A DNA stretch of 64,000 nucleotides from an uncultured Chloroflexia bacterium (GTDB lineage: Bacteria; Chloroflexota; Dehalococcoidia; GIF9; UBA5629): contig CAWHDI010000040.1 in assembly GCA_963827985.1 (NCBI GenBank), positions 16,682-80,681 on the forward strand. Reading direction: 5' to 3'. Positions within the stretch are counted from its first letter, which is position 1. Every line of letters starts with the position of its first letter. This document shows positions 23,287 to 60,030 of the stretch, piece after piece. The notes beneath the pieces are model-generated. The model had not been told where the DNA came from and ran no database searches. It worked only from the letters and a program-made list of their open reading frames with translations. The translations under genes and the position numbers were made by a program.

Positions 23287-23923
23287 CAGGACTAAATCAA
23301 ATACGAATACTGCTGGCTGACGATCATACTGTGGTACGCAGCGGGCTGAGTGCAGTGCTGGCGATGCAGGATGATTTCAAAATAGTCGGTGAGGCAGGTG
23401 ATGGTGAAGAGGCCCTTCGGCTCTGTGAAAGCCTCAGCCCGACGTGGTATTAATGGATCTTTTAATGCCGAAGCTCGATGGCGTAGCTGCCACGAGAGCG
23501 ATAAAAGAGCGCTGGCCGCAGGTCCAGGTCATCGCCCTGACCAGCTTTAAGGAAAAGGAATATGTGGAAGGCGCCCTCAAAGCTGGCGCCAACGGCTATC
23601 TGCTGAAAAATGTCTCGGCTGATGAGCTTGTGACAGCAGTGCGGCGAGCGGTTGTCGGGCAGCCCAGCCTGTCGCCGGAAGCGGCGCAGGTGCTGATTCA
23701 GAAGGTGAACGAGCCCCCACAGCCGGGACTGGATATGACGGGGCGCGAAAAGGAAATATTGGCCTTAATGGTAGAAGGGCTTTCCAATAGCAAAATTGCG
23801 GAACGTCTTACAATTAACCAATCGACCGTAAAATTTCATGTGAGCAATATCCTGGGCAAGCTCGGAGTCACCAGCCGGACCGAAGCCGTGGCCCTGGCCG
23901 TGAAACGCCGCCTTATAGAGTGA
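23283..23923 (+). CDS. NarL/LuxR-family response regulator, one frameshift in the receiver
   Basis: MTGLNQIRILLADDH...LCESLSP then a frame change (ccgacgtgg should read ccggacgtgg, giving SPDVVLMDLLMP). The receiver and C-terminal LuxR HTH (EKEILALMVEGLSNSKIAERLTINQSTVKFHVSNILGKL) are in ORF 23444-23923. Confidence 0.8.
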
Positions 23924-32390: not shown

Positions 32391-32575
32391 GGCCTCTGGA
32401 ACAAATTGTTCGCTCTCCTTTCCAAACTTGGGAGGCGCCACCGTTTCCAGTGGTACCCTCGGGCTTTCGCCACCGGCCGGGTAAACAATGCCTTTTCGGT
32501 TTAGTTATCCGGCTCGAAGAGTTCGTATTTAGTTAATGGTGCAAAAATAGCATGCTTAAGTCAATATGTCAATGG
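32391..32575 (-). promoter_or_regulatory. Copy 1 of a ~185-bp conserved promoter + leader element upstream of the ALDH gene
   Basis: About 90% identical to 35984-36168. Read on the minus (gene) strand it has TTGACA-17 nt-TATTTT, then a GC-rich leader with paired segments. Confidence 0.6.
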
Positions 32576-35983: not shown

Positions 35984-36168
35984 GGCACCTGGCACAAATT
36001 GTTTACTCTCCTTTCCAAATTTGGGAGGTGCCGCCGTTTCCAGTGGTACCCTCGGGCTTTCGCCACCGGCCGGGTAAACATGCCTTTTTGGTTTAGTTAT
36101 CCGGCTCGAAGAGTTCGTATTTGGACAATGGCGTAAAAATAACATGCTTATGAGAATATGTCAACTCA
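35984..36168 (-). promoter_or_regulatory. Copy 2 of the ~185-bp conserved promoter + leader element (upstream of the HesB-like/ALDH-ADH operon)
   Basis: Direct repeat of 32391-32575. TTGACA-17-TATTTT on the gene strand. Confidence 0.6.
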
Positions 36169-42824: not shown

Positions 42825-43784
42825 TCATGCAATCGACTCGCGCACCAGTTCAACGACGTCTTTCACTTCGATTAAATTTTCTTTGCCTGAAGTGAGGACT
42901 GCATCTTCAAACATGGTCATGCAATAGGGACAGGAAACGGCCAGTACCTGTGCCCCGCTTTCGATTGCCTGGTTGATACGCAATTCGGAGAACCGCTGCC
43001 CGCTCTTTGACTCCAGCCAGAGACCTCCCGAGCATCCACCGCAGCATAATGAATTTGCGTGATGGTCGCTCATTTCAACCAGGTCCACCCCCGGGATGCT
43101 GCGCAAAATGCGCCTGGGCTCCTCGTAAATGCCCTGGTACCTGCCCAGGCAGCAGGAATCATGATAGGCAACCTTTTCGTCAATGCTTTTGCGGAATTTA
43201 ACCCTGCTTGCGCTTATCAGCTCATCCATGTACAGCGCAATATGAGTTACCTCGAAATTGGCGCCAAATTCCGGGTACTCGTCTTTTAAAGTATTATAAC
43301 AATGAGGTGATCCGGTCAGTATCCTCTTCACGCCTGCTGCCTTCAGCGCCCGGATGTTATTCGATGCCAGGTTAGCAAAGAGCCCCTCTTTACCTGCCTT
43401 GCGGATGCTCTCGCCGCAGCAGGAAATATCTCCGTCGAGTACGCCGAAATCTACCTTTGCGGCATTGAGGACTTTTATCATGGATTCGGCTGCCTTACGG
43501 CACCTCTTGTCATAAGCCTGGTAGCAGCAGGTGAAGAGCATGATGTCAGTCTCTGCTGTATAAGCTCTTATACCCGTTTCCAGCGCCCATTTGGTGCGCC
43601 CTTCCCGCGGTTCGCCCAGCGGGTTGCCCACGCCGGCCAGGTTGGCAGCGACGGTGCGGAGAGAACGGGGGATTGAACCTGCTCCAACCTCGGAGATGAC
43701 CCTGCGCAAGGACCCTATCATTTTCGGTATATCCACGCTGCGGGCAGGCCTGCGCGCAACTATCTGCAGCCGACGCATTTCCAT
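42825..43784 (-). CDS. hdrB: Heterodisulfide reductase subunit B-like protein (two CCG domains)
   Basis: Two cysteine-rich CCG domains (LFTCCYQAYDKRCRK...ISCCGES and DSCCLGRYQG...SLCCGGCSGG). Last gene of the apr-qmo-hdr cluster. Confidence 0.8.
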   Translation of the reverse strand: MEMRRLQIVARRPARSVDIPKMIGSLRRVISEVGAGSIPRSLRTVAANLAGVGNPLGEPREGRTKWALETGIRAYTAETDIMLFTCCYQAYDKRCRKAAESMIKVLNAAKVDFGVLDGDISCCGESIRKAGKEGLFANLASNNIRALKAAGVKRILTGSPHCYNTLKDEYPEFGANFEVTHIALYMDELISASRVKFRKSIDEKVAYHDSCCLGRYQGIYEEPRRILRSIPGVDLVEMSDHHANSLCCGGCSGGLWLESKSGQRFSELRINQAIESGAQVLAVSCPYCMTMFEDAVLTSGKENLIEVKDVVELVRESIA

Positions 43785-43969
43785 ATCTCCTCATTCCCAA
43801 AATCCACCATCCAAGCTGGTGCTTGATGTATCAGGCTGCGCACACCAAAGCTGCCGCCGATGTTCCAGGGGCAGACAGCAGTGCATGTCCCGCACTGGTA
43901 ACAGTGCTCCAGGTCCTGCCCTCCCTGCAGTTTCAGCGTGTCTGTAATCTCAGGTGTTATCTCAGCCAT
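43760..43969 (-). CDS. hdrC: Heterodisulfide reductase subunit C-like 2x[4Fe-4S] ferredoxin (C-terminus in other frames)
   Basis: CYQCGTCTAVCP plus a second cluster CVGC..(frame change)..SCAQACP. The HdrC-like tail VDIPKMIGSLRRV is in the hdrB frame. Confidence 0.7.
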   Translation of the reverse strand: MAEITPEITDTLKLQGGQDLEHCYQCGTCTAVCPWNIGGSFGVRSLIHQAPAWMVDFGNEEIWKCVGCR

Positions 43970-43987: not shown

Positions 43988-46118
43988 TTACAAATCCTTG
44001 TAGGGGTTCGGCCCGATCTCGATGATTCTATCGAGGAATTCGTTTAAAATGCCGGGCAGTTTGCCGTATTCTTCCATCGAGAGTTGCACTACGCGGAGCC
44101 GCTCCGGTTCAAGTGCCAGCTTATTGAGGGTGTCCTGCATCTTCTGGATCCTTGTTTCTGTAAGTTCGCTCCCGGTGATATTGTGGCATTGATAATCGTC
44201 CCCGTGCTTGCAGCCAACCATGATAACGCCGTCGATGCCTCTGGAAAGTGCATCTGTAATCCAGACCATGTTTATCGATCCCAGGCACCTGACCGGTATT
44301 GTCCGGATGAACGGATTGAATTGCATGCGATGGATGCAGGCCATATCAAGTGCCGGGTAAGCATCGTTTTCACACAGGAACGCAAGTATGCGCGGCTTAT
44401 TTTCATCGGCCTCAGGTATCTCAATGGCCTTTATCATCGATCCTGTGCTGTCAACCGAATAATCGGCAAATGATATGATCCTTTCGGGACATGCGCCCAT
44501 GCAGATGCCGCATCTTCTGCACCGCGTCGGATTTGGCAGCGGATTGAACTTGTCGTCCTCGTCATACATGCCGAAGGGGCACTCTTCAGTGCATCTTTTG
44601 CATTGAGTGCACCTTGCCATGTAAAGCTCGGGGTAGCTTTTATCGCCTGCCCTGGGATGCGTAGACACTCCCCTGGCAGCCATTTCTATGCATTGAATAG
44701 CCTTGAGGGCTGCGCCGTTGGCATCCTCGTGGCTGGAGAGACTATCCATAGGCTGCCTGGCACAGCCCGGCAGCGTAGATGCCTGTCCGGCGGGTTTCGT
44801 AGGGGAAACAGATAAAATGGGAGTCAGGGAACCCGTATTTAAGTTCCGGCAGTTCTTTGCCCTGCCTGTATGACAGGTTGAGCACTGGCGGGGTGGATGG
44901 GACCATGCCGGTTGCCAGGATAACCAGGTCGACATTCAACTTTACTCTCTCGCCCAGCAGCAGGTCTTGCGCTTCCACCGTAATCCCGTTAGCAGTGGTA
45001 GTAACTTCCGGCGTCTCAGTTTTGGACAGGAATATGGACCCCGCCTCCTGGACATTCCTGTAAAAGTCCTCGTATAGCGAGGGTGTGCGGATGTCTTTAT
45101 ATAGAATATAGGCTTTTGCATCAGCATTATTCCCGGTAAGGTAGAGCGCCTGCTTCAGTGAGGTCATGCAGCAGAAGGACGAGCAATACGGCAGATGTTC
45201 GCTGTTCCGCTGCCCGGCGCACTGGATGAATACTGCACTCTGAACAACCTTGCCGTCCGAAGGACGTTTTATCACGCCATCGAAGGCCAGTTGTTCCATT
45301 TGGAGGTTGGTGATGATGTCAGGATGGCTGCCGAAACCGAGGTACCCCAACCGGGCGGCATTGTACGGTTGAAAGCCGGTGGCCACAATTATTGCGCCTG
45401 CTTTGATTTGTTCAGTCCCGCCGGGACCCTTCAGGGAGACATCAAACATGCCGGGGGAGCCCTCGATTCTCTCCACTTCGGTGGACTTGCAGACCCTGAT
45501 CATAGCGTGATTTTCGACGCTGCCGACAACCCCGGCTGTCCCGGTCTCTTCCGGTTCCTTGTACGGGGGGCGCTTGGGATACTGGCGATATAGCTTGTTC
45601 ATCCATCCGCCCAGTGACGGGCTTTTTTCCACCAGGCAAACCTCGTATCCTGCTTCTGCCCCGCCCAGTGCGGCGCTCATGCCCGTGATACCGCCGCCGA
45701 TCACCAGGATGGTCTTGTTGACCTGCGACAAGAACGGTGTTGCGCGTGATATTTTTACAGCCCTGGCAAGCCCCATGCGGAGGTGGTCTTCCGCCATTGC
45801 TTGTGTATCTGGATCGCCCGCTGGATGGGACCATGCCACCTGCTCTCTTAAATTCACCCTTTCCTGCACTACGGGATGGTCAAAATTGAAACATTCTTGT
45901 TTCACTCTCGGTGAGCAGGCCCCGATCACTACGGTATGCGCACCGCCAGCCAGGCCCTCATCGATCAGCATCCTCCCTTCCACGCTGCACAAGCATGGGT
46001 GAATCTGGTAGATGTCAGCATGATATTGCGTGGCAGCTATATTGAGCAGCCTGTCCATGGACAGGGCTTCCCCGATGCCGCATCCGCTGCACAGGTATAC
46101 GGCAAGCTTATTTTCCAT
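43988..46118 (-). CDS. qmoB: QmoB-like protein: HdrA-like FAD oxidoreductase fused to ferredoxin and MvhD domains (one frameshift near 44745)
   Basis: ORF 44742-46172 (start MENKLAVYLCSGCG, FAD motif ILVIGGGITGMSAALG, ends ...GIYAAGLCQ) continues in ORF 43988-44935 as PMDSLSS...ALKAIQ, then 2x[4Fe-4S] (CTQCKRCTEECP, CRRCGICMGACP) and the MvhD/FlpD domain (RILAFLCENDAYPALD...VGCKHGDDYQCHNITGS). Confidence 0.75.
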
Positions 46119-47379
46119 TGGCCTGCCTTCTCCTGGCTGAGTGGATTGATTTAAGGACGGCGCCTGTCGCATCCCTGGTTGACGAACTCACGTCCATCGG
46201 CCTCTTGGCACATCCCGCAGCATAGATTCCCTTCGGGCCATTGACCACGAACCCGCGATCATGGGCACTGGCCCCGCCGGGAAGCCATTCTGTCGCAGCA
46301 GGGACCATGCCGGTGGCCAGCACGGCCATATCTACCCTTTGCCTGACGATTTTGCCCTGCGACGTATCCTCAACTTCAACTATAAGGTCCTTTGTTGCCG
46401 GGTCTTCCTTTATTCTTGAAACCTTCCCGCGTATGAGCGAAACGCCTTTCATGTCATGGATATGCTGGTAAAAATCTTCCTGTGTACCAGGCGCCCGTAT
46501 GTCAATGTAATAGACGATGGCACTGGCGTCAGGGTTTCTCTCCTTTATGTAGGTGGCCTGCTTGAGCGAAGCCATGCAGCAGACGCCGGAGCAGTAGGAC
46601 AGGTGGTTTACGTCTCGTGAACCGGCGCATTGTACAAAAGCCACTGTGGATACCGCCTTTCCGTCCGAAGGGCGGACAATCGGCCCGCCACGCAGCCCGG
46701 TGGTTGCTGCCAGCCTTTCCATCATCATGTTGGTTATGACGTTGGGGAACTGGCCGAAGCCTAGCCTGTCAAGGCGGGCAGCGTCATAGGGCTGCCATCC
46801 TGTGGCCACTAATATCGAACCGCAATCAACGGTGATTTGCCGGTCGCACATCTGCAGGTCGATGGCCCCGTAGCGGCAGGCGGTGACGCATTTACTGCAC
46901 TCGATGCCCCGGCATGTTTTACTGTCCACCGTGTAAATCTGTGGAAAGGCCTGCTCATGCGGCAGGTAAATGGCGCCGGTGTTGTTCCACCCATAATTAA
47001 AATCGTCCGGCCTCTGTACCGGGCAAACACCTGCACAGTCACCACAGGCCGTGCACCTGTCGTTCACCTTGCGGGGCGACAACCGGACCGTGGCCTTGAA
47101 ATCGCCTTCCGTGCCCGAAATAGATTCCAGGCCGGCGTGCGTGAACACCCGTATCCGCGGATTGTTCCTGATGCGCTTGAAATTTAACTCGAGGCCGCAG
47201 GTAGGTGGGCACAGCTTGGGGAAATAGCGGTTCATCCTGATGGCCATGCCGCCCAGGAATGGTTCCTTTTCGATCAGAACTATGTTTTGGCCGGCGTCAG
47301 CCGCTTCAACCGCCGCGGTTATCCCGCTTACTCCTCCTCCCACTACCAGGATATCGGCTGAAATGACAGGCTCATCCAT
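46108..47379 (-). CDS. qmoA: QmoA-like HdrA-type FAD-dependent oxidoreductase
   Basis: 423 aa. ILVVGGGVSGITAAVEAADAG FAD fold, YFPKLCPPTCGLE motif, inserted 2x[4Fe-4S] ferredoxin (CTACGDCAGVCP, CSKCVTACRYG). Size and motifs match QmoA. Confidence 0.8.
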   Translation of the reverse strand: MDEPVISADILVVGGGVSGITAAVEAADAGQNIVLIEKEPFLGGMAIRMNRYFPKLCPPTCGLELNFKRIRNNPRIRVFTHAGLESISGTEGDFKATVRLSPRKVNDRCTACGDCAGVCPVQRPDDFNYGWNNTGAIYLPHEQAFPQIYTVDSKTCRGIECSKCVTACRYGAIDLQMCDRQITVDCGSILVATGWQPYDAARLDRLGFGQFPNVITNMMMERLAATTGLRGGPIVRPSDGKAVSTVAFVQCAGSRDVNHLSYCSGVCCMASLKQATYIKERNPDASAIVYYIDIRAPGTQEDFYQHIHDMKGVSLIRGKVSRIKEDPATKDLIVEVEDTSQGKIVRQRVDMAVLATGMVPAATEWLPGGASAHDRGFVVNGPKGIYAAGCAKRPMDVSSSTRDATGAVLKSIHSARRRQANGK

Positions 47380-47394: not shown

Positions 47395-49279
47395 TCAGTC
47401 AACCAGTTGGATGACGTCCCTCTTAAACACCGACCATTTTGCGGAAGCGGGGTCCCAGCGGCAATTGACGAAACATCGCCAATTATCCTGGTCCAGCCGG
47501 GGGACATCCGCCCGGAAGTAATAACCGGGCCACCTGGTCTCTTCCCTGAAAAGTACAGAACGGACATGTGATTCGGCCTGCCACATCCTGTGCTGGTTCT
47601 CCCAGCACCGCATGAGCTCGTGCAGGTTTTCGGCCGCCAGTTTTTCTGCATCCTCACGGAGGAAGGCCAGCAGTTCAAGGCCCTTCTCCAGGGAAGAGTT
47701 TGTTGGTCGTAAACTGGGTGGAGGCGCCCCCTGCGTACTCATCCATGATCTTTTGCAGCCGGAACATGAACTGCTTCGGCTTGATATAGTTCTCGCTGAC
47801 GTCCGGGTTGTCTGTCAGTTTGCCGTGCTGGTCAAATAGTTCGAGGGGCTTGAGCAGGCGATTCTTGAGGTCTTCGACCTGTGCAATATCGATTTTCACC
47901 GGCTCCGGATGGTCGACTATATAGGCAATCGCTGCTTTGGCGGCGATCCTTCCCTCGCAATGCGAGCCGTCGGAAAACTTGTGGCTGGATGCGCCGGACG
48001 CATCGCCTGCGCAGAATATCCCTTTCACCGTGGCCATGCGGTTATAACCCCAGAAGTACTCTTTGGGAGAAAGGTCTTCCGGGCCGCTGACCCAGGCTCC
48101 TGAGCTCCTGAATGCGAGCCGATGAAGTAAGGTTCGCAGGCCTGTATCTCTGAAGGCTTCTCCTCCGGCTGGTGTTGGTGCCTGCCCAGAGAATTGATTG
48201 GGAGATCGTCATATCCAGGAAATCTTCCCAGGCTTCCGATTCGACCTCTTTCATGCGTTTCCTTCGTTCTTTTTCATCGCTGATGGCGGCAGAGCATCCT
48301 GGCAATGGCCTCTTCAGTTCTCATGTACATGGGGCCTTTGCCCTCTTTCTGATCGAGCATCATCAGGTAATTTCTCAGGTTGGCGGGGATAGGTTTGGCC
48401 GATCCGTATGGCCCCCAGTTCTCAAGGTCTTTCTTTCGTTCTTGCATGTAGTCCTGGCCGAGAGCGTTGGTAGCGATGGACTTGAACAGCAGGAACCATG
48501 CGCCGACAGGCCCGTAAGCATCTTTGAAACGCACCGGGATAAAACGTACTTCCTGGCAGGTCATCTCACAGCCGCTCTTCAAAGTAAAATAGGCGCTTGA
48601 GCCGCTGTTGAAGGGGGGATACCAGCTTCTGCCTAGCCCTTCGCCCACCGAGCGCGGCCTGAATACGTGCACAGCTCCGCCCATGGCCACCAGGACTGCT
48701 TTGGCCCTGAATACGTAGAACTTATTTTCCGCGTGCTGAAACCGACGGCTCCCGCTACCCTGTCTCCCTCGATAAGGGGCTCCACTATAAATACACGCTC
48801 ATAAATATTGTCATTTCCAATGGTCGCCAGTGCGTTGCGGGCAGCCTCTGCAACAATGTTTTTATATGATTCACCGTTGATCATGACCTGCCAGCCGCCT
48901 TCGAAAACGTAGTTGCCTTTTTCATCTTTCCAGATGGGTAGCCCCCACTTTTCGAAGAGGTGCACGGTGCTGTCCACATGGCGGGCAATATCATAGACAA
49001 GGTCTTCGCGGGCGATGCCCATCAAGTCGTTCCTGACGTAGCGTACGTAGTCTTCCGGGGTCTTGTCCCTGCTTTTCATGCCGACATACATATTGAGGGC
49101 GGAAAGCCCTGTGCGACTGCGCCGCTGCGCTCAATGGCGGCCTTGTCGACCAGCGTTACCTTCAGGTTGTGCTTTTTGGCCCAGTAGGCCGCCTCCACGG
49201 CGGCTCCACAGGCGGCCATGCCGCCGCCAATGATCAGCAGGTCGGTGTTAACTTCTACGGTCTGTATATCTGACATCAT
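47395..49279 (-). CDS. aprA: Adenylylsulfate (APS) reductase alpha subunit, broken into at least 6 frames in this assembly
   Basis: N-terminus MMSDIQTVEVNTDLLIIGGGMAACGAAVEAAYWAK...LVDKAAIERSGAVAQG is diagnostic for AprA. Colinear fragments 48633-49091, 48274-48690, 48042-48305, 47675-48037 and 47395-47742 complete the protein. Confidence 0.85.
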
Positions 49280-49295: not shown

Positions 49296-49745
49296 TCATT
49301 TCTTGAGTGTCGGCAGCTTTTCGATACCCAGCGATTCCGGCTCGGTAAAGAGGAGGGGACTCTTCAGGTCCTCTGCCTCAGCAACAGTTTGGAAGCCCCC
49401 GTCGGGTACGGCCGATCCCTCGGGAGTAGTCCGCGTGCGAAACTTAAAGCGCTTGATGGACCCGTTGCGGAATTTCACAGTCCACAGGATGCTGTCGCTG
49501 CCTCTAAGCGGCGTAACACTCGCTCCCAGCGGTACAAAATCGGCATATCCTCTGACCGCGATGGCCTGCTGGGGACAAATTTTCACACAGCTATAACACT
49601 CCCAGCACATGGAAGGATCACGGTTGTACGCCTTTTGAGTATCTGCGTTCAGTGCCATCAGGTCATTCGGGCAGATGTACTGGCAGGCGGTCTTGTCCTT
49701 GCCCTTGCAGCCGTCGCACTTGCTCATTATTACGAAACTTGGCAT
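49296..49745 (-). CDS. aprB: Adenylylsulfate (APS) reductase beta subunit
   Basis: MPSFVIMSKCDGCKGKDKTACQYICPNDLMALN...CWECYSCVKICPQQAI...RGSDSILWTVKFRNGSIKRFKF matches the AprB iron-sulfur subunit almost motif for motif. Confidence 0.9.
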   Translation of the reverse strand: MPSFVIMSKCDGCKGKDKTACQYICPNDLMALNADTQKAYNRDPSMCWECYSCVKICPQQAIAVRGYADFVPLGASVTPLRGSDSILWTVKFRNGSIKRFKFRTRTTPEGSAVPDGGFQTVAEAEDLKSPLLFTEPESLGIEKLPTLKK

Positions 49746-49760: not shown

Positions 49761-50615
49761 TTACATATAACCGAGGCCGCGCAAACGTTTCATCATTTTT
49801 TCTTTATCCTGGCGCCGGCCTGCTCTCTCTGTAGTGTGTTCGAGGTCCTGTTCCCAGGCAGGGACGCCGGGGGCCGCTATTGCGCTGGTGGTCTTGGCTC
49901 CCAGCGAACGGTAACCTTTCTCGTACAGAATGCAGTAGGGTATTTTAAATACCTGGTACGTATTCCACAGGTCCCTTTCCGTGAAGTGCAGGATGGGCTT
50001 GATGCGGACGTGTTCGGGGATGAGATAAGCAGCCTCTTTTTTCTCAAAATAATCATCCTCGGCGCGGGCGTTCTGCTCGTCCCGCCTCAGCCCCTGGAAA
50101 ATTGCCTTGACCCCAAACTGCTCAATATACATGTTGAACATGACTGTTTTCATCAGGTGATTGCCGGTGTATGATTCCGCCTCGAAGGGAAAAGTGTCTT
50201 CCTTGTAGTCGATACGCTTCAGTTCAGCCTGGTTCCTCTCGTTCAGGTCCTTGACCTTGACGATGTTATTTAATTTGCCGCCGGCGGCCTTGATAACATC
50301 GTCGTTGCGCATCCACGTCAGGTCCAGTTTCCATTCTGCCGCATATCGGTTCATGAAATCGTGTATCTCATCGAACGTATCAAATTCGTCGATGGTCATG
50401 ACCTTGGGGAGCTTAATTTTATCCTCTGCGCAGACCTGGCGGATGATCCAGAGTGCAAGGGTGCTGTCCTTGCCGCCCGTCCATGTGATAGCCATGTCGT
50501 CTATTTTGAACTTGGTGAATGACTCCCGCACAACTTCTTTTGATTTATCGACAAGCGCCTTGCAATTCTTTTCCAGGTCAGTCATTGTATCCTCCCGTTT
50601 CATATCTTTGTCCAT
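49761..50615 (-). CDS. Phosphoadenosine-phosphosulfate-reductase-family (ATP-PPase fold) protein lacking the C-terminal catalytic Cys motif
   Basis: P-loop-like ITWTGGKDSTLALWII and GLRRDEQNARAED motifs of the PAPS_reduct family. No ECGLH/Cys-cluster tail. Ends 16 nt upstream of aprB. Confidence 0.7.
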   Translation of the reverse strand: MDKDMKREDTMTDLEKNCKALVDKSKEVVRESFTKFKIDDMAITWTGGKDSTLALWIIRQVCAEDKIKLPKVMTIDEFDTFDEIHDFMNRYAAEWKLDLTWMRNDDVIKAAGGKLNNIVKVKDLNERNQAELKRIDYKEDTFPFEAESYTGNHLMKTVMFNMYIEQFGVKAIFQGLRRDEQNARAEDDYFEKKEAAYLIPEHVRIKPILHFTERDLWNTYQVFKIPYCILYEKGYRSLGAKTTSAIAAPGVPAWEQDLEHTTERAGRRQDKEKMMKRLRGLGYM

Positions 50616-51808
50616 CGTCTTATTCTTGGTTTTAGCATTGCTTCCAATGTGGCTGTTTCTGTAGAAGACCGCGCAATATTGTTTAGCTCACCGGGGTCTT
50701 TCCTGAGGTCATATAGCTCCGGCGATTTGGTATCCGCCCTGTAGATAAGTTTCATGTCCCCCTTGCGGCAAAAATACACGTCTTTGCCGATATCGCCGCC
50801 TTTGACGCTTTTCTGGTCGATGGCTTCCCCGAAGGCGCATTTATTGGCGTATTTGCATGCAGGCAGCAGGGATTGGCCTTTGAATGACTGAGGCGGTTCG
50901 AGCCCGAACAGGTTCAGGATGGTCGGAGGTATATCTGCGCTGCTGACAACTTCGCCCCGGCATGAATTTCCTCCTGTCCCATATATAAGGAGGGGAACAT
51001 CGATCAGTTCCGAATATAGCTTATCGTCGTGGGACAGGCCGCCGTGTTCGTTGAATTCATCACCATGGTCGCTTGTAATGATAACGGCCGTGTCCTTGAG
51101 GATACCCATGCCGTCCATTGATCGGAAGAACGATTCTACATAGGTATCGACTTCCCTGACGTGGACGTCATACAATTTCTTCAGCAGCGCCACTTTTGCA
51201 GGGTCGGAGACATCCCTCTTCAGCAGAGTGTTCTCGAATAGTTCATACATTTCATCCTGGTTGATGGTTATGGACGGGTCTACCATGTCGACATAGCGCC
51301 TTTCGGGCATATAGGGTTCATGGACATCCATGTAATGGAGCCAGAGAAAGAATGGGGCATAGGTTTTTGATTTAGTGTGTTGCGACAACCAGTCCGTAAC
51401 CTTTTTGTTAATGACATTGCCGCGTATGTAAGGTATGCGCTCGTCATCGAGGTCATCATCCAGGGAGTCATAGAAGGTATCCCATCCGCGGTCCCAGCCG
51501 AGCATTGCGCTGCAATAAGGGTTGGAATGGAATCCTGCGGTATAAACGCCTACCTGTTTCAGAACTTCCGAGACCAATGTGCGCCGGGGATCCAGCCCTT
51601 CCGGTTTGCCGTAATCAAGGTAATAACCCGAACACAGGATGGCGGGAAAGGATGCCTGGGTATACGGCCCTGCGCTCTGGCACCCGGTGAACACCGTGCT
51701 GCGGTCTTTGAGGGAATCAATGAACGGGGTCAATCCCCTGGTATTCCCGTACAGCCCGAATACATCCTTCCGGGTTGCATCCAGTGTTAATAAGACAACA
51801 TTTTTCAT
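50600..51808 (-). CDS. Sulfatase (alkaline-phosphatase-superfamily sulfuric ester hydrolase)
   Basis: LTLDATRKD, GPYTQASFPAIL and ITSDHGDEFNEHG sulfatase motifs. No classical C/S-x-P-x-R site seen, so possibly a sulfatase-like hydrolase or transferase. Confidence 0.8.
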   Translation of the reverse strand: MKNVVLLTLDATRKDVFGLYGNTRGLTPFIDSLKDRSTVFTGCQSAGPYTQASFPAILCSGYYLDYGKPEGLDPRRTLVSEVLKQVGVYTAGFHSNPYCSAMLGWDRGWDTFYDSLDDDLDDERIPYIRGNVINKKVTDWLSQHTKSKTYAPFFLWLHYMDVHEPYMPERRYVDMVDPSITINQDEMYELFENTLLKRDVSDPAKVALLKKLYDVHVREVDTYVESFFRSMDGMGILKDTAVIITSDHGDEFNEHGGLSHDDKLYSELIDVPLLIYGTGGNSCRGEVVSSADIPPTILNLFGLEPPQSFKGQSLLPACKYANKCAFGEAIDQKSVKGGDIGKDVYFCRKGDMKLIYRADTKSPELYDLRKDPGELNNIARSSTETATLEAMLKPRIRRWTKI

Positions 51809-51839
51809 AGCTATTATTTACTGAAACAGGGGCCGGGCT

Positions 51840-53164
51840 TTAATATCCCAGCCGTTTCATCCTTGATTCCATCTTCTTCTTTTTGTCGGCATTGGTTGAA
51901 CTGGGCCTGGGAGCCTGGACGGCATCCGATTGGTCGGTGGACAGTTCACTGGAAGCTGTGCCTTTCACCAGCATTTCTGAAGTTCTGCCGGAGATAGGTC
52001 TCAAATTAGGGTTGAATGCTTCAGGTCCGTATAGCCTGTTCCACATGTCCATTTTATCTGTATCAAACTTCTTGCCCTGCAGGCCCGGGTAGTCGGGATC
52101 AAAGCGATGGCAGCGGAATGTGCAGTTACTCAGACCATAAGGTGAAAGGGTGTCCCTGTGATTGTAAAAAGGCACTATGTATTCCCAGACGATTTCGCCG
52201 GTGGGGTTTACTTCGAGGAAACGCCCCATACCGCCTTCGCAGATCAGGGTGTTGCCGTTGGGCTGCCTTTCAGCGCCGCCGATATAGGTTGTAACGAAAT
52301 CTACCGGGTTCTCCGGCCTGTATTCCCACTCAACTTCATTGGTTTTGGGGTTTACTTCGAGAACACGGCTGCCCTCCGGTGGGAAATAATCGACGTTGTA
52401 CCTGTTGTTATTAAGCACAAGAATGTTGCCATTGTCGAGCATTGTCGGGTTGTGCGGCATGGAAAGGAAACCCTTGCCCCAGCGCCACTTAATATCGCCG
52501 GAATTTCTGTCGACGATAAAGAGGTTATCGCAGCCGAAGGAGCAGATCATCAGGTCGCCATTGGGCAGTTCTTCCAGTGAATTGAGCCCTACCCAGGCCA
52601 GCCTCATCTGCAGCGGTGCGAAACAATCAAGTTCGTAATCAAAATGCTTGTAACCTATCCACTCCCAGGCTATTTTACCTTGTGGAGTGATCTCCTGTAT
52701 TACGTTGCCGTGCAACGGTAAATCTGCTCCAGAATACTCTTGGGCGAAATCCCGCCCTGCACTTTGGCAGCCACATCTTCAGGTAAGGGTACATATTTCA
52801 TAATCATGGTATTGCCGTTCTTAAGGCGTACGCGGTCATGGGCATCCATGTTATCCTGATCATATTTCCAAACAACTTTGCCATCCCAGTCAATCTCGAC
52901 GACGCTTTTGCATACCGTCGGTACTGATGATGGCGGGGCGCCCACGTCTTCAATGCCGCAAAGTATGTTGCCGCTGGGAAGCAGGTCGGCGTGCAGTCGA
53001 ACCCATCCCGGCAGCTTCCAGCGGTGTACGAAACGGCCCTGCATATCGATTAGCCAGGCGCTGCCCGGGACCTGTGTCATGGGGCTGAACATGGTGAAGC
53101 CGTTATACGCTTTGTGCGGCTGATATTCGGTGACAGATTGCAATGCTCTTCTTGCTGGTGACAT
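51840..53164 (-). CDS. Arylsulfotransferase (ASST)-like beta-propeller protein, one frameshift near 52705
   Basis: ORFs 52700-53164 (N-terminal) and 51840-52715 (C-terminal) carry repeated blades (GNILVLNNNRY..., NGNTLICEGG...) resembling ASST/aryl-sulfate sulfotransferase propellers. Confidence 0.55.
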
Positions 53165-53363: not shown

Positions 53364-53993
53364 TCAGTAGTGGGCTATCAGCCATGCCGCCGCTTCGCCG
53401 CGCGTGTGCAGGCACACCTTTTTCATGACGTTGCGCATGTGTACTTTGACCGTGTTCTCAGATATTGACAGGGCCGCCGCTATATCCTTATTAACATTGC
53501 CTTTACCGACCAGTGAAAGCACCTCCCTTTCCCTGTTTGTCAGCAATGGCACACGGACATGTACCTTTTTCTGCAGCCCGTCAAAAGCATTCAATACGTT
53601 ATTTGCCATTTGGGGTGAAACCACCAGGTCGCCATCGGCAATTAATGTAATGGCTTTTATCAGGTTGTCAACACTGGTGTCCCGGGTGATGTATCCCGAT
53701 GCTTCATGATAAATAATTGTGCCCAGGTCCCTTTGCTCATTAGGCCATCCGAACATGAGTATTTTTACATCGGGCGTATCACGATGAATGAGTGGTATTG
53801 CCTCATTGTACGGGCAAGCCCGTATTTCAGAATCGAGTAGTATGACGTCCGGCTTTTCACGCTGGGCTATTTTAATCAGCTCAAATCCTGTGCTGCACAC
53901 CCCTGCCACATGTATCTCTGCATCAGCTTCCAGCAATTTTGGCAGGCTTTTACAGATGATATCCATGGTGTCTGCAACAATTAGTTTTATCAC
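53364..53993 (-). CDS. LuxR/NarL-family response regulator with atypical receiver
   Basis: The receiver has the phospho-acceptor region DVILLDSEI, but the acidic pocket is IVADTMD rather than DD. C-terminal LuxR HTH (REREVLSLVGKGNVNKDIAAALSISENTVKVHMRNVMKKV). No cognate kinase adjacent. Confidence 0.8.
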   Translation of the reverse strand: MIKLIVADTMDIICKSLPKLLEADAEIHVAGVCSTGFELIKIAQREKPDVILLDSEIRACPYNEAIPLIHRDTPDVKILMFGWPNEQRDLGTIIYHEASGYITRDTSVDNLIKAITLIADGDLVVSPQMANNVLNAFDGLQKKVHVRVPLLTNREREVLSLVGKGNVNKDIAAALSISENTVKVHMRNVMKKVCLHTRGEAAAWLIAHY

Positions 53994-54177: not shown

Positions 54178-55497
54178 TTGATTTATGCAGCGAAGGGGGT
54201 AATCCACCTGATGCAAGAGAAAGAGAGATACAAGGTCGGCGGAAGGGGAGCTGTATTTGTACTTATTATCCTTTTCCTGCTCTATGTCCTGAACTTCGCT
54301 GATAGGGCCATAATGTCAATAGTGCTTGAGCCTATGAAGAAGGCCCTGCAATTGAACGACGCACAGGTTGGGGCCACGCAATCCATTTTCCTTCTTGGAG
54401 TGGGCCTGCTGATGATACCCGGCTCAATTCTTGTGGAAAGATGGAGCCGCCGCAAGACGCTGGGGGTCATGGCCATTATCTGGAGTCTGGCTACCTTTGC
54501 CACCGGCCTTGGCACAAAATTCTGGCACCTGATGACAGCCCGTTTCACGGTTGGCATTGGGGAAGCGGGCTATAACCCCGGTGGCACAGCCTGGTTGTCC
54601 CTGGCCTTTTCGAAGAAAGTAAGAGGAAGGATACTGGGCATTTTCCAGTCGGCAGGCCAGTTGGGAACGGCTTTAGGGCTTATGATTGGGGGGTTGCTTG
54701 TGACGCAGACCGGCGATTGGCGGGTTCCTTTTTATGTTTTTGCCATACCGGGTGTCATATTAGGCATTCTAACCTTCTTCCTTCCGGACTATGCAACGAT
54801 ACGTGAAAAAGGCGAAGGTGTAATTAACAGGAAATTTTTTTCCGAGGTATTCAGTCTTTTTAAAATTAAGACATATACTCTCAACGTGATAGCCCAGTCC
54901 TTCTATGCCTTTGTCACTTTTACCTTGATCGGGTGGCTGCCTGCCTTGCTCATGAGATCGTTTGGTATAGATGCATTCCAGGCGGGAATGATCAATGGGT
55001 TGACCGGGTTGATAGTCATAATAAGTGCGCCTCTGGGTGGTTTTCTGGGTGACAGGTGGCAGAGGAAGAAAGCAGGTGGCAGGGCCTATTTCCTGGTAGT
55101 TGCCATGCTGCTTTATTCAATTACCGGCATCCTGATGATTGTTTCAACCGGTGGCCTGCTGCCAATATACATTGTGATGGCGCTGGTAACCGCATTTTGC
55201 TCAGGGTTGGTATTGCCGGGCTTGTTCGCCCTGTGGACCGACGTATTGCCGGCCAAACACCGTACCACCGGCATCGGTATGGGTACTATGATTTCACTAA
55301 TTATAGGTGCCGTTCCGGGTCCCTTGTTTCTCGGCTCGGTTTCAGATGCGTTTGGCGGTGGTGCTTCCGGCTTGAGAGAGGCATTTCTGTGCTTGATGCC
55401 CATGGCATTCGTAGCAACAATAATGTACTTTTTCATGTCCAGGTATTATCCTGCAGACAGTGCCAATATCAGCGACGAAGTATTTGCAGAAAAATGA
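54178..55497 (+). CDS. MFS transporter (paralog of 8519-9820)
   Basis: 439 aa, 12 TM. Conserved DRAIMSIVLEPMKKAL and GIGEAGY motifs shared with the two other copies. Confidence 0.85.
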   Translation: MIYAAKGVIHLMQEKERYKVGGRGAVFVLIILFLLYVLNFADRAIMSIVLEPMKKALQLNDAQVGATQSIFLLGVGLLMIPGSILVERWSRRKTLGVMAIIWSLATFATGLGTKFWHLMTARFTVGIGEAGYNPGGTAWLSLAFSKKVRGRILGIFQSAGQLGTALGLMIGGLLVTQTGDWRVPFYVFAIPGVILGILTFFLPDYATIREKGEGVINRKFFSEVFSLFKIKTYTLNVIAQSFYAFVTFTLIGWLPALLMRSFGIDAFQAGMINGLTGLIVIISAPLGGFLGDRWQRKKAGGRAYFLVVAMLLYSITGILMIVSTGGLLPIYIVMALVTAFCSGLVLPGLFALWTDVLPAKHRTTGIGMGTMISLIIGAVPGPLFLGSVSDAFGGGASGLREAFLCLMPMAFVATIMYFFMSRYYPADSANISDEVFAEK

Positions 55498-56222: not shown

Positions 56223-57370
56223 GTGATAGATACGCAATCTCCCGCGGAAACGAAGGCAGCTTCGCGCCTGCTCTTCGTCGACAACTGGCGTCTGGCGCTG
56301 ATTATCCTCGTGGTCGTGCACCACGTGGCCCTTGTCTACGGGGCGGGTTCGCCATTCTACTACATGGAGCCTCCGTACCAGGACCCCTGGGCCTTCCTGA
56401 CGCTGCTAATATTCGTGCTAGTCAACCAGTCCTGGTTTATGGGTGCCTTCTTTCTGATTTCTGGGTACTTCACACCACAGGCCTTCGACAATAAGGGAGC
56501 AGGCTCTTTCCTTAAGGACCGGTTGCTTCGTCTTGGCATTCCCCTGGTAATATTCATATTTGTTCTCAGCCCGGTCTCGTACATTGGCGTTTACAACATG
56601 CCCGCCAGTTTGGGCGGGATCACGGGACCGTTTGCCTGGGACCAATACCCCAAACTCCTCGGTCCGGGAATTCTCTGGTTCGTTGAAATGCTGCTAATCT
56701 TCGATTTTGGCTACGCTGCATGGCGCAAGCTGACAAAGAATCGCACCTCAAAGGTGCGGCCGGTACAGGGCCGCCCCGCTATTTGGCGATAGGCATCTTC
56801 ATCGTGGTACTGGCGCTGGCGAGCTATTTGCTGCGGATCGTGATGCCGATGGGAAAATCCACTCCTGTGCTTGGCTTTCCGACTCCCGGTTACATTCCTC
56901 AGTACCTGAGCTTATTTGTACTGGGTGTTGTCGCATATCGTCGCAACTGGTTCGAGACAATCCGCAACTCGATGGGCAACATGGGCCTGGCTGTAGCGGC
57001 GGGGGCGACAATCCTGCTGTTTCCGCTTGCAACCGGCGGCAAATTGTATTTTCTCGGCAATGGGACCTGGCAATCCGCCGTCTACGCGCTCTGGGATTCG
57101 ACCGTTGCGGTTGGGATGTGCCTGGGTCTGATCACGGTGTTTAGACGTTTATTCAACCGGCAGGGAGGGCTCGCCGCTTTCCTTTGCCGGCATGCCTATA
57201 CCGTATTCATTATCCATACCCCGGTTCTCGTTTTCCTTGCGCTGGCGCTGCGGGGAATCGATCTTGAGCACCTGCTTAAGTTCCTTCTCGTATCAATCAT
57301 CGCGGTCCCGCTTTGCTTTGCTGTTGCCTGGCTGGTACGAAAGATCCCGTTCGCATCGCGGATTCTCTAA
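56223..57370 (+). CDS. Acyltransferase-3 family membrane O-acyltransferase, one frameshift near 56750
   Basis: ORFs 56223-56792 and 56720-57370 together give a ~10-TM Acyl_transf_3 protein (LLFVDNWRLALIILVVVHHV...). Confidence 0.7.
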
Positions 57371-57403
57371 CCTGTGACAGTAATTTCATTTTGCGAGGTT
57401 GAC

Positions 57404-58199
57404 ATGAAAAACAAGCTGTCCAAATCTGCATTGATCACCGGTGCATCGTCGGGCATCGGTGAAGCCTATGCGCGGCTGTTGGCTTCGCTGGGCTACGATC
57501 TTGTTATTGTTGCCAGGCGCAAAGATCGGCTCGTGTCCATTGCTGAAGAGTTGCGGGTAAAATACGGCATATCAGTGACCGTGCTGGAGGGTGATCTCTG
57601 CAATGAAGATGACCTCGTCTCAATCGAAGAACAAGTCCGTGGTATCTCCAATCTCACGGTTCTCATCAACAATGCCGGCTTCGGTACTCTTGGCCCGTTT
57701 GCCGATGTGGATATCAGCAAGTCTCTGGATATGATTGCTCGTGCACGTAACAGCGCCGACTCGTCTGGTTAAAGCCGCTCTGCCCGGCATGCTTGCCCGG
57801 CATGAGGGCAGTGTAATCAACGTGGCTTCGGTGGCGCCCTTCTTGCCTGTGGCAGGTAACGTGATCTACAACGGAACGAAGTCCTATTTAATTGCATTCT
57901 CTGAGTGCCTTCAGTTGGAAGTGAAGGGTGCCGGCATCAGGGTGCAGGCGCTTTGCCCCGGATTTACCCGCACCGGTTTTCACTCGGTTGACGAATTTAA
58001 AGACGTCGATTTTTCTACCATCCCTGCTTTCATGTGGATGCAGGCAGATAAGGTAGTGGAGCAATCCTGGCGGGCCTTGGGAAAGAAGGTTATCTTCATT
58101 CCCGGCTTTATTAACCGCATGACCTGTACGCTCTTTAGCGGATTATTTAGATACGTCGCAAGCAAAAGACCTGTTAGGCCCGCGGTTCAGAAAAAATAG
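57404..58199 (+). CDS. SDR-family short-chain dehydrogenase, one frameshift near 57740
   Basis: TGASSGIGEAYA (Rossmann), NNAG, then catalytic YNGTKSY in ORF 57735-58199. Confidence 0.75.
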
Positions 58200-58278: not shown

Positions 58279-59250
58279 TTACTGGTCGGCCTTTAGCGTC
58301 CCTTCAGAGAGGGCTTTTTTGAATATTTTGATGGATTCGCCGACACCCCGGGCAAGCGGCGTAACCCGAAGTGCTCCCAGCAATGCGATAAGGGGCGCAT
58401 TATCAATCTGCTCCGGGAATGGAAGCGGTTTATCATCGTAGGTAATGGTCCCCCTGGCAGATGGTTCAGCGGCCTCGATCTCCCTGATAATATCGTCCAC
58501 GCCAACTGTCTCGCCTCCCAGGTTAAAGACTTCGGCTCCCTTAAAGTCCACCCGGGCGGCGTCAATGTAAGCCTTGGCTGCGTCATCCGCGTACTGGAAG
58601 CCAAATCGGCCTCCGTAAGAGATGTTATAGGGCTTTCCCGCTGCCGCAGCGAGCATGGCCTTGGTGGGAGTTGACGTAAGGCCCTGGTCCCTGCCGGGGC
58701 CGTAGACTACATAAGGACGTATCCCAATACTTGAAATACCGTTATCCAGCCAGTAAACCCGCGCCGTTCCTTCATTTGCCTGCTTATAAACACCGTAGTG
58801 CGAACGCGGTTTTAGAGGCGCATCGTGCGTCAGTATCCCGGCTGGATATTCGCTTCCCAGGCCGTAAACGGCCGTGCTGCTGGCATAAACCACACTGCGG
58901 ATGCCGCACCGTCCGGCTGCCTCGAATATATTTACCGTTCCCTGGACGTTCACTGCGGCGCCCAGCGGCGGATCGGCTTTGCAGAAAGGGAGCTGCATGG
59001 CGGCCAGGTGTATGATGTGCGTAATTTTGTTCTCGGACAGGGCGTGTTCTATGGCTTTTATGTCGGTGATGTCGCCCGTGATGAATTTAACACCGGATAT
59101 TTCCTTCTCGCTCATGATCAATTTCAGGCGGTGCATCGATCCTCCCCTGACCAGTGCGCATGTAAATACACCTTCACGCACGAGATTGCGCACCACCCAG
59201 GCCCCGATGCAGCCGGTTGCTCCCGTGACCAGGAAACGTTCCCATTTCCA
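58279..59250 (-). CDS. NAD-dependent epimerase/dehydratase (extended SDR), N-terminal frameshift
   Basis: Body in ORF 58279-59196 (YASSTAVYG, YGVYKQANE). The Rossmann N-terminus FLVTGATGCIGAWVVRNL lies just upstream with no start codon in frame. One G fewer in the GGG run after ATG (about 59255) gives MERFLVTGATGCIGAW. Confidence 0.75.
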   Translation of the reverse strand, partial: WKWERFLVTGATGCIGAWVVRNLVREGVFTCALVRGGSMHRLKLIMSEKEISGVKFITGDITDIKAIEHALSENKITHIIHLAAMQLPFCKADPPLGAAVNVQGTVNIFEAAGRCGIRSVVYASSTAVYGLGSEYPAGILTHDAPLKPRSHYGVYKQANEGTARVYWLDNGISSIGIRPYVVYGPGRDQGLTSTPTKAMLAAAAGKPYNISYGGRFGFQYADDAAKAYIDAARVDFKGAEVFNLGGETVGVDDIIREIEAAEPSARGTITYDDKPLPFPEQIDNAPLIALLGALRVTPLARGVGESIKIFKKALSEGTLKADQ

Positions 59251-60030
59251 TTCCTCCGGCTATTCACCCATCCGCAATCGACCAGAAGGTCGGTGCCGGT
59301 GATGAACGACGCTGCATCGCTCGCCAGGAAATATATCGACTCGGCGATCTCGGATGGATCGGCCCAGCGTTTGAAGGCCTGCTCGGCCTCTCTCAGTTTC
59401 TTGACTTCTTCATAGGACTTCCCGGTTTTCGCCGATTCTATCTTTATATCGCTCCTGAGCATGGGCGTATCCACTGAGCCGGGACTTACCGAATTTACAC
59501 GTATGTTCCATGGGGCGAGCTCCCAGGCAAGCGCCCTGGTGAGCGCGATTATTGCTCCTTTCGTTGCGCCGTAAAGTGAATGATCGATTTGTCCCACATG
59601 GCCCGAGACCGAGCCCATGTTCACAATTGAGCCGCTCTTCTGTTTCTTCATTACGGGAATTACGTGTTTGCAAAAGAGGAAAATGCCCCCCAGGTTAACA
59701 TTTACAACGCGCTGGTATTCATCCCAGAGGATCTCATCCAGGGGGCGCACCAGCACGATCCCGGCGTTGTTATTCAGCACGTCGATACGGCCGTGCATCT
59801 GCATTATTTTTTCTATGGACGAGGCGACATCATTTTCGCTTCGCTACATCGCATTGCCAGAAGGCGCAATCTCCGCCTGCGGCATTAATCTCATTCTTGA
59901 CTTCATTGCCTCGATCTGAGATGTCCAGCATGACGACAGCGTATCCTTTGTGTGAAAACAATCGTGCAACAGCTTCGCCTATGCCGTTAGCGGCGCCCGT
60001 AACAACTGCAACATTCTTTGATGAATTCAT
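59124..60030 (-). CDS. SDR-family oxidoreductase (3-oxoacyl-ACP-reductase-like), frameshift near 59810; 3' end uncertain
   Basis: N-terminus in ORF 59830-60084 (VAVVTGAANGIGEAVA), body in ORF 59124-59804 (NNAGI, YGATKGA, VDCGW). The ORF-derived stop overlaps the next gene by ~130 nt, so the true end is probably nearer 59260. Confidence 0.7.

Follow-up and report, generated by a model that had tools for sequence, protein, structure and literature searches.

The question raised by this locus is why the genes for dissimilatory adenosine 5'-phosphosulfate (APS) reductase, aprBA, are preceded by a PAPS_reduct-family gene, a sulfatase-fold gene and a gene for a beta-propeller resembling the arylsulfate sulfotransferases (ASST). 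The locus lies in a stretch of 64,000 nt from an uncultured Chloroflexia bacterium (Dehalococcoidia; GenBank assembly GCA_963827985.1, contig CAWHDI010000040.1), hereafter the window, whose own numbering is used throughout. Comparison with loci from other genomes and contigs (L numbers) suggests that the three genes belong to a conserved cassette which is joined through APS to a variable partner, ATP sulfurylase (Sat) or APS reductase (Apr). We propose, with a confidence that falls somewhat short of even, that the cassette is a cytoplasmic sulfuryl-transfer relay from sulfate esters to APS, which Apr would reduce here and Sat would convert to ATP elsewhere.

On the minus strand the genes follow in the order LuxR-type regulator, ASST-like, sulfatase-fold, CysD-like (the PAPS_reduct-family gene), aprB, aprA, qmoA, qmoB and hdrCB (Table 1). 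A first-pass annotation of the sequence had placed the named genes at this position, co-oriented and tightly spaced, with a LuxR-type response regulator next to the ASST-like gene, and the Pfam and NCBIfam assignments agree with it. The gap from the CysD-like stop to the aprB ATG is 15 nt (reported as 16) and that from the ASST-like to the sulfatase-fold gene is 31 nt (reported as within 32). The 16-nt overlap claimed between the sulfatase and PAPS_reduct genes is an artefact of taking the longest open reading frame (ORF); the two genes are separated by 14 nt, because the conserved start of the CysD-like gene is the ATG at 50585, with a GGGAGG ribosome-binding site 5 nt before it, and its homologs are all 274 aa long and start with MT(D/E). 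Each gap from the ASST-like gene to aprB carries a Shine-Dalgarno sequence, the junctions from aprB to hdrCB measure 15–19 nt with an overlap of qmoA and qmoB, and 199 nt separate the regulator from the ASST-like start. The layout from the ASST-like gene to hdrCB looks like a single operon of ~10.3 kb. A scan of 42–56 kb for consensus promoters and terminators was uninformative, the site counts being no higher than in shuffled sequence.

Several of these genes are interrupted in the assembly. A missing nucleotide near 52730 spreads the ASST-like gene over two frames (441 aa in intact orthologs), and uncompensated 1-nt indels occur in aprA (six), qmoB (one) and hdrCB (one), most of them at short homopolymers, as seen by comparison with an 82%-identical contig. 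The window was read in the frame of this contig for frame correction and for the ratio of nonsynonymous to synonymous substitution rates (dN/dS). Frame-corrected aprA shows 93.4% identity to the L001 ortholog over 622 codons, zero in-frame stops and a dN/dS of 0.041; the values are 0.037 for aprB, 0.039 for the CysD-like gene, 0.054 for the ASST-like gene and 0.04–0.10 for the cassette genes overall. Purifying selection on the cassette genes matches that on aprBA in strength. Genes elsewhere in the window, encoding an acyltransferase (Acyl_transf_3), short-chain dehydrogenases/reductases (SDRs), a class II aminoacyl-tRNA synthetase and an MFS transporter, are split as well. Because aprA has this low dN/dS without stops and unrelated genes are likewise split, the frameshifts were treated as sequencing or assembly errors rather than gene decay, and the same two observations speak against aprA and the ASST-like gene as pseudogenes, a reading that was rejected. 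Single-nucleotide indels seem to be common in this assembly. The indel load of aprA (six in 1.9 kb) is clearly above that of its neighbours, an excess that this reading leaves unaccounted for.

Cassette enzymes and their shared C-terminal tail

The product of the gene next to aprB, the anchor of the cassette, matches the PAPS_reduct domain (PF01507, cutoff 22.5) and falls below every NCBIfam cutoff, for CysD (NF003587, 78.8 versus 195; TIGR02039, 49.3 versus 396.6) as well as for CysH (NF002537, 50.8 versus 154; TIGR02055, 37 versus 235). It has the PAPS_reduct/adenine-nucleotide alpha-hydrolase fold in common with both enzymes, and alignment gives 26% identity to Escherichia coli CysD and 20% to CysH. 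Among 75 family members (51–94% identical), the PP-loop TWTGGKDS, GNHLMKTV, RRDE, ER.GR.QDKE and the C-terminal LGYM are invariant. The CysD-type motifs, namely a canonical PP-loop, H..MKT, RRDE..R, ER.GR and a GY(F/M) C-terminus, are thus retained and invariant in the family, and a mobile tail after the Arg motif is common with CysH. In contrast to CysD, the protein is without the ~50-residue CysD insertion and carries an insertion of its own, of ~29 residues with an invariant F.FEAES; in contrast to CysH, its tail, KRLRGLGYM, has no Cys in any of the 75 members, and Fe-S cysteines are also missing. Neither the window nor any of the 86 loci retrieved from other genomes and contigs yielded a CysN homolog at E <= 1e-5, and no CysC (APS kinase) was found in these sequences near any family member.

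The first-pass annotation had judged that the PAPS_reduct protein is probably not a CysH reductase, and this holds: the Cys of ECGLH is absent and the scores lie under the CysH cutoffs, which rules out a CysH identity, while the curated cutoffs rule out CysD. These results indicate that the protein is, as far as sequence can tell, a CysD-like, CysN-independent PP-loop protein. Its fold does not discriminate further. In a Foldseek search of the PDB, FAD synthase, TtuA, APS/PAPS reductases and CysD score alike, and the best PDB matches by sequence and fold are FAD synthase and FMN adenylyltransferase. An exact-sequence look-up of the window protein returned no record.

In 41 loci the CysD-like gene is directly preceded by the sulfatase-fold gene, and in a chromosome-level Deltaproteobacteria metagenome-assembled genome (MAG; CP070673, L065 8684–10807) the two are naturally fused in one 707-aa ORF. 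The protein had been annotated as a sulfatase, a sulfate-ester-cleaving enzyme. The fold is present (128.6 bits), but the formylglycine motif is not: T-Q-A-S-F stands where C/S-x-P-x-R would be expected, T50 aligns with the formylglycine Ser of 7oz8, and both Thr at this position and the surrounding GPYTQ(A/S)(S/A)FP are invariant in 49 of 49 sequences. Metal-binding residues (D10, D15 and the SDHGDE motif) are retained, and the NCBIfam scores are 100.8 versus 481 for arylsulfatase and 85.7 versus 433 for choline-sulfatase. The missing motif and the sub-cutoff scores rule out a true formylglycine (S1) sulfatase. These results suggest that the protein is a Thr-nucleophile member of the alkaline phosphatase superfamily, for which the word sulfatase names the fold only; since Thr replaces the formylglycine motif, simple hydrolytic release of sulfate is not the chemistry to be expected. 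The main sulfatase-fold proteins (~50 loci, e.g. 50600–50650 in the window) end in a motif of their own, KPR(I/V)RRW followed by 1–4 residues, which differs from the tail described below.

The ASST-like protein is covered by two tblastn segments, with 96% and 91% identity to its intact L001 counterpart, and it scores 40.9 bits against PF14269 (cutoff 27) and 33.5 bits against PF05935 (cutoff 24.2). H109, H238 and R300 are conserved, the two His in 94–99% of 71 relatives; H238 aligns with a His of 9kf4, and the match to AssT, used for comparison with His436, is weak (E ~0.1). The PF05935 and PF14269 matches and the propeller with its conserved His and Arg residues invite comparison with the PAPS-independent aryl sulfotransferases (E. 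coli AssT, Desulfitobacterium AST and Cpz4). Sulfuryl transfer by enzymes of this type follows a ping-pong mechanism with a covalent sulfo-enzyme intermediate, and carrier phenols are used; Cpz4, of caprazamycin biosynthesis, uses a dedicated sulfated carrier molecule (PMC13426309). No signal peptide or hydrophobic N-terminus was found in the window protein, nor in 70 of 73 relatives. Signal peptides are absent from all cassette enzymes, which are read as cytoplasmic because of this absence. Whereas the known ASSTs are periplasmic (PMC13426309), the ASST-like protein would therefore be cytoplasmic; it also differs from them in being encoded in an operon with putative nucleotide-sulfate enzymes, in the C-terminal tail borne by some of its paralogs and in the very low similarity. 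A long low-complexity linker precedes its own tail.

This tail, defined as R[LM]xx[LFMA]GY plus 0–2 residues at the C-terminus, occurs only twice in a six-frame translation of the window, at the ends of the CysD-like and ASST-like proteins. Among 1141 neighbourhood ORFs it was found in 104, all of which belong to four cassette families of unrelated fold: all 71 complete CysD-like proteins, 22–25 of 78 ASST-like proteins, 10 of 11 NPP-like phosphodiesterase-fold proteins and 7 members of a second, distant sulfatase-fold paralog, in which Thr also stands at the nucleophile position. Conversely, 46 Sat proteins and ~1000 other neighbouring ORFs are all without the tail, and it is absent from the main sulfatase-fold proteins except in the L065 fusion, where the CysD-like half carries it. 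In the accessory enzymes a long low-complexity linker precedes the tail, and in genomes without an ASST-like gene the tail-bearing sulfatase-fold paralog stands in its place beside the core.

In an alignment with the E. coli proteins, the tail matches both the C-terminus of CysD (SMELKKRQGYF) and the tail of CysH (LKRECGLHEG), with its Tyr four residues beyond the site of the catalytic Cys in CysH. The tail thus appears to be positionally homologous to the mobile CysH tail that bears this Cys. We read it as a putative docking peptide, and possibly as a carrier. A search of the PDB with the tail peptide alone gave no match.

Partners of the cassette and the link to APS

CysD-like relatives number 2603 in a metagenomic protein collection, and 76 loci were found in species-level genomes. 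The cassette is spread over more than 10 anaerobic phyla, and the named taxa include Dehalococcoidia, Syntrophaceae, Desulfarculales, Desulfobacteraceae, Atribacterota, Aerophobetes, Actinomycetota, Binatia, Latescibacter, Clostridia and Acetomicrobium. This distribution, together with the conservation of its motifs, suggests that the cassette is real, ancient and conserved. One copy (L071) lies in a MAG assigned to the cultured species Acetomicrobium hydrogeniformans, and this presence opens the cassette to testing.

All ORFs around the cassette loci were clustered to count its neighbours. ASST-like genes occur in 58 loci, often as two or three paralogs, and a complete Sat (NF003166, 534 bits versus a cutoff of 387) in 49 of 73 genome loci, plus one relic. 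TauE is encoded in 22 loci, often beside Sat; TRAP transporter genes in 24 (DctQM) and 19 (DctP); TctA, TctC and TctB in 17, 15 and 8; the NPP-like protein in 11; and GntR regulators in 10. LacI and two-component regulators also accompany some cassettes. The importers with solute-binding proteins and the GntR regulators point to uptake and use of a substrate. Among 135 unlabelled same-strand neighbours no further family recurred in more than 6 loci, and no biosynthetic partner genes were found. In Syntrophaceae, Atribacterota, Aerophobetes, Acetomicrobium and Actinomycetota, which are mostly fermenters or syntrophs, the cassette pairs with Sat and TauE.

Besides the window, only L001/L002, L007, L008 and L009 have an aprBA-qmoAB-hdrCB operon after the cassette, and together they form one Dehalococcoidia clade. 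With at least four other genomes or contigs sharing it at a dS of ~0.5–0.9 from the window, the arrangement is not due to chance. AprA of this clade is nearest to that of other Chloroflexota (77–80% identity) and of Desulfofundulus (74%). In these relatives the operon is canonical: two Chloroflexota loci (L085 and L086) read sat-aprB-aprA-CxxCxxCC-qmoA-qmoB-hdrCB, and the Desulfofundulus locus (L087) reads sat-DUF6955-aprBA-qmoAB-hdrCB. The order from aprB to the HdrCB-like gene is the same as in the window, and the HdrCB architecture is found in L085 and L087 too, whereas sat, with DUF6955 in L087, is replaced in the window by the ASST-like, sulfatase-fold and CysD-like genes. No Sat homolog was found within the 64-kb window. 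The cassette therefore occupies the sat slot, since sat precedes aprB in all three relatives. The first-pass annotation had called the physical linkage to aprBA unusual, and these apr loci, the closest ones, support it.

Two further observations tie the cassette to APS. One MAG (GCA_042572325.1) carries an intact sat-aprBA-qmoAB operon (L085, 7229–8413) and a separate cassette (L006), of whose own sat only a relic with the last 64 codons remains (4731–4982). In addition, cassette Sat is present in 0 of 10 loci from lineages that are apr-linked or named as sulfate-reducing bacteria (SRB) versus 49 of 63 others (Fisher p = 3e-6), a comparison made with crude taxon names and loci that are not phylogenetically independent; for loci with complete flanks only, the counts are 0 of 5 versus 31 of 37. 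Taken together, these results suggest that APS is the metabolite through which the cassette is coupled to whichever partner it has, Sat or Apr. The earlier idea of 'organosulfate respiration' stands as far as the tie to APS metabolism is concerned (Sat in 49 of 73 loci), whereas the aprBA fusion is restricted to one clade and the cassette is also common in lineages where it is paired with Sat and TauE. Organosulfate respiration would be one special use of a broader module.

Two groups of neighbouring genes were noted besides. DUF6955 (PF22271) follows sat not only in the Desulfofundulus sat-aprBA operon (L087, 8143–8433) but also in nine cassette loci (L025, L031, L032, L043, L049, L051, L054, L060 and L080), and its product appears to be associated with Sat. 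MttB-like, URO-D-like and B12-binding corrinoid methyltransferase genes stand beside cassettes in L019, L048, L064, L076 and L056, a hint of methylated substrates such as methoxylated aromatics or choline-type compounds.

Possible routes between sulfate esters and APS

In the relay that we propose, the MFS transporter here, and TRAP or Tct systems elsewhere, would import an anionic sulfate ester, probably an aryl sulfate. The ASST-like propeller, or in some genomes a tail-bearing sulfatase-fold or NPP-fold enzyme, would take the sulfuryl group of the ester, which would then pass to AMP on the CysD-like protein, aided by the Thr-nucleophile sulfatase-fold partner, to give APS. The enzymes would dock mutually through the shared RLxxLGY tail. 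In most lineages Sat would turn APS and pyrophosphate (PPi) into ATP and sulfate, the latter exported by TauE, as a form of substrate-level energy conservation; in this Dehalococcoidia clade APS would go directly to AprBA-QmoAB-HdrCB, bypassing ATP-dependent sulfate activation. What we infer here is the sulfate-ester substrates, APS as the product, the role of each enzyme and the docking or carrier function of the tail. A relay of this kind, which retains the core of the organosulfate respiration idea, is the simplest account of the data because it brings together the importers, the cytoplasmic enzymes of transferase type, the CysD-like core, the Sat plus TauE or Apr partner, and the lack of APS kinase and biosynthetic genes around the cassette.

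Its parts have precedents. In sulfur oxidisers, sat and apr are transcribed together and Sat works in the direction of ATP (PMC3779200); the sat-aprMBA genes of Allochromatium vinosum share the logic of making ATP from APS and PPi, except that APS there comes from sulfite oxidation and here from a proposed sulfate ester. Syntrophus makes ATP from AMP and PPi (PMC4992975), and in the case of S. aciditrophicus Acs1 the activated group is the acyl group of acetyl-CoA instead of a proposed sulfate ester. Hydrolytic sulfatases have been proposed, from single-cell genomes of Desulfatiglans, to supply sulfate to subsurface sulfate reducers (PMC6129605). That proposal has the same ecology, with sulfate esters fuelling respiration in sulfate-poor sediments, but such sulfatases need C/S-x-P-x-R and a maturase, and the free sulfate still needs ATP, whereas the enzyme in the window has Thr and is coupled to a putative nucleotide-binding protein.

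Several points weigh against a relay toward APS. The CysD-like protein keeps a canonical, invariant PP-loop (TGGKDS), which is degenerate in CysH. A canonical loop is usual in ATP-binding enzymes that release PPi, and adenylyl transfer would suit it no less well than sulfuryl transfer to AMP; the relay also gives no reason for having both a CysD-like enzyme and Sat. The assignment to ASST is remote, with E = 7.5e-8 for the best solved relative, 9kf4, and E ~0.1 for E. coli AssT, and the substrate class is therefore uncertain. Syntrophaceae-type cassettes are without the Thr-nucleophile enzyme, whose part in the relay is only putative. An AlphaFold2 model of the CysD-like protein, built on a shallow alignment of 12 sequences, has a mean pLDDT of 71.7, with values below 50 for the C-terminal 50 residues, and is silent on docking of the tail. 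Ordinary aryl sulfates are probably lower in sulfuryl-transfer potential than APS, so that APS formation would need to be pulled by Sat or Apr. Finally, the association with Sat and Apr and the SRB pattern are equally predicted by a cassette that consumes APS, and all genomic arguments except operon logic and ecology fit the reverse direction equally.

Run in that reverse direction, the system would use APS, formed by Sat from ATP and sulfate or already at hand in sulfate reducers, as the donor of a sulfuryl group that would pass through the CysD-like protein, by CysH-like chemistry in which the tail Tyr takes the role of Cys, to ASST-like enzymes that sulfate imported phenolic or other acceptors, as a PAPS-independent sulfation or detoxification whose product TauE exports. 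Such a reversal, which we regard as rather unlikely, accounts for the Sat and Apr associations just as well. The ASST family consists of transferases, and carrier-mediated two-step sulfation is known from caprazamycin biosynthesis (PMC13426309). The alignment of the tail with the catalytic tail of CysH and the failure to find an APS kinase, which would make APS rather than PAPS the donor, point the same way, and sulfuryl transfer from APS to a phenol is, as a matter of general knowledge, thermodynamically downhill. It would, however, cost two ATP equivalents per sulfation in lineages living near the thermodynamic limit (Syntrophaceae, Atribacterota and Dehalococcoidia), and the cassettes have neither biosynthetic genes nor other recurrent partners, while their importers and GntR, LacI and two-component regulators resemble those of substrate-induced catabolic operons. 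A cassette that drains APS from respiration would also make little sense at the head of aprBA-qmoAB-hdrCB, in the place of sat. The decay of the cassette sat in the MAG that carries sat-aprBA (GCA_042572325.1) is neutral as to direction.

The position of the CysD-like gene, exactly in the sat slot before aprB, and its CysD motifs (PP-loop, H..MKT, RRDE, ER.GR and GY(F/M) tail) would also suit an ATP sulfurylase of another kind, independent of a G protein, that stands in for Sat, in which case the ASST-like and sulfatase-fold enzymes would do no more than free sulfate from esters for the usual activation with ATP; the supply of subsurface sulfate reducers by sulfatases has already been proposed (PMC6129605). 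We consider this improbable. A complete Sat co-occurs in 49 loci, often adjacent, and two enzymes for one reaction would be unexpected; the CysD score is 78.8 versus 195, the CysD insertion and the CysN partner are absent, formylglycine is missing, ASST-type enzymes are transferases rather than hydrolases, and the shared docking tail would be left unexplained. Very unlikely, in our judgement, is an adjacency to aprBA without functional meaning, in which a mobile or recombining cassette, moved for example via a shared sat gene, acts on something unrelated, for instance a phosphoester or nucleotide cofactor, possibly by FAD synthase-like chemistry. The restriction of the aprBA linkage to one clade, the flavin enzymes among the best PDB matches of the CysD-like protein, the usual role of sulfatase-family members with a Thr nucleophile as phosphoryl transferases and the NPP-like genes beside 11 cassettes all speak for it. 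Against it stand the retention of the fusion across at least five genomes at a dS of 0.5–0.9 with gaps of 14–31 nt and strong purifying selection, the lack of flavin or cofactor genes nearby, Sat, TauE and Apr as the sole recurrent metabolic partners, and the cassette-sat relic and SRB pattern, which point to APS.

Within the proposed relay toward APS, the tail Tyr might itself be the carrier. As a tyrosine-O-sulfate swinging arm, it would be loaded from sulfate esters by the ASST-like or sulfatase-fold enzymes, swing into the CysD-like active site at the position of the CysH Cys and hand the sulfuryl group to AMP, giving APS without ATP. We hold this to be a long shot. If it were true, fermenters and syntrophs would gain ATP from sulfate esters via Sat, and the Dehalococcoidia clade would respire sulfate without activation.

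Sulfate activation costs two ATP equivalents and is the main energetic burden of sulfate respiration. If ester sulfuryl groups went directly to APS, this cost would be removed, and organisms that do not respire sulfate could gain ATP via Sat, which would be a new way of conserving energy where sediments and aquifers are starved of it, and would offer a molecular explanation of how organic sulfur can fuel 'cryptic' sulfate reduction. Bacterial ASST-like enzymes would thereby gain a physiological role, which for bacterial aryl sulfotransferases was described as still poorly understood in a 2026 review (PMC13426309). Even if the direction were reversed, there would be a PAPS-independent, APS-dependent sulfation system and a peptide tail common to four enzyme folds. 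A full-text literature search gave no description of the cassette, the aprBA fusion or the RLxxLGY tail. What is new is thus the replacement of the sat module of an apr operon by an apparently undescribed cassette, the parts of the cassette coming from known superfamilies and the apr operon being standard; the relay or the Tyr carrier, should either hold, would be a new biochemical route.

Flanking genes and other features of the window

The regulator and the transporter that flank the cassette are also conserved in position. The response regulator is 81–83% identical to its same-position orthologs in L001, L007 and L008, and comparison with the regulators of sat-apr operons or of other cassettes was uninformative on orthology (~30% identity to all). 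The divergent MFS gene shows 64–75% identity to two MFS genes at the same position in L001, the slot being filled in L007 too, and encodes a candidate organic-anion importer by its similarity to OATP. In the apr operon, the L001 ortholog of AprA scores 902 bits against TIGR02061 (cutoff 641.75), and the two tblastn segments of hdrCB are 87% and 76% identical to the 381-aa L001 protein with Fer4 and CCG domains. Coordinates are given in Table 1.

Table 1. Genes and C-terminal tails of the cassette-apr locus, and frameshift-split genes elsewhere in the window
Feature	Coordinates	Strand	Basis
Divergent MFS transporter with OATP-like similarity	54178..55497	+	Pfam MFS_1 206 bits, OATP 55.8 bits
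NarL/LuxR-type response regulator	53364..53993	-	Pfam Response_reg and GerE
ASST-like beta-propeller, ~441 aa	51840..53164	-	PF14269 and PF05935
ASST-like C-terminal tail, KKKMESRMKRLGY-COOH	51843..51881	-	
Sulfatase-fold (alkaline phosphatase superfamily) gene	50600..51808	-	Pfam Sulfatase PF00884 128.6 bits
CysD-like PAPS_reduct-family PP-loop protein, 274 aa, cassette anchor	49761..50585	-	Pfam PF01507 87 bits
CysD-like C-terminal tail, KEKMMKRLRGLGYM-COOH	49764..49805	-	
aprB, dissimilatory APS reductase beta subunit	49296..49745	-	TIGR02060 equivalog 201.8 versus cutoff 135.65
aprA, APS reductase alpha subunit, six 1-nt indels in assembly	47395..49276	-	Three-frame reading
qmoA, HdrA-like flavoprotein	46108..47379	-	NCBIfam HdrA2-like match; 79% identity to same-position L001 gene
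qmoB, one frameshift near 44765	43988..46118	-	tblastn segments = residues 1-451 and 451-709 of L001 protein
HdrCB-like Fe-S/CCG-domain protein in the place of QmoC, one frameshift near 43760	42825..43969	-	tblastn
Frameshift-split genes (MFS, class II aminoacyl-tRNA synthetase, Acyl_transf_3, SDRs)	5071-6376, 38316-40024, 56223-57370, 57374-58199, 58279-59804		

A second locus of the window (6454–9820 on the minus strand and 5071–6376 on the plus strand) encodes a 669-aa NPP-like (PF01663) protein and two MFS transporters; one has 43% identity to the L001 orthologs of the MFS beside the cassette, and the other is frameshifted. This second NPP-like gene (6454–8463) has no RLxxLGY tail. A PAS-HisKA_3 histidine kinase gene followed by a second LuxR-type response regulator gene lies at 21785–23923 on the plus strand.

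Between 26000 and 30000 the window contains a low-GC island (0.39–0.44 versus ~0.52 elsewhere) with strongly negative GC skew, which may be horizontally acquired DNA. Two molybdenum/tungsten cofactor (Moco/Wco) riboswitches on the minus strand, at 35992–36123 and 32399–32531, score 67 and 62 bits against an Rfam gathering score of 36, and sit upstream of an AdhE-like gene of 888 aa (32802–35468) and an Aldedh gene of 516 aa (30665–32215). Genes of the aldehyde dehydrogenase family do not encode molybdoenzymes and are therefore an unusual target for riboswitches of this class.

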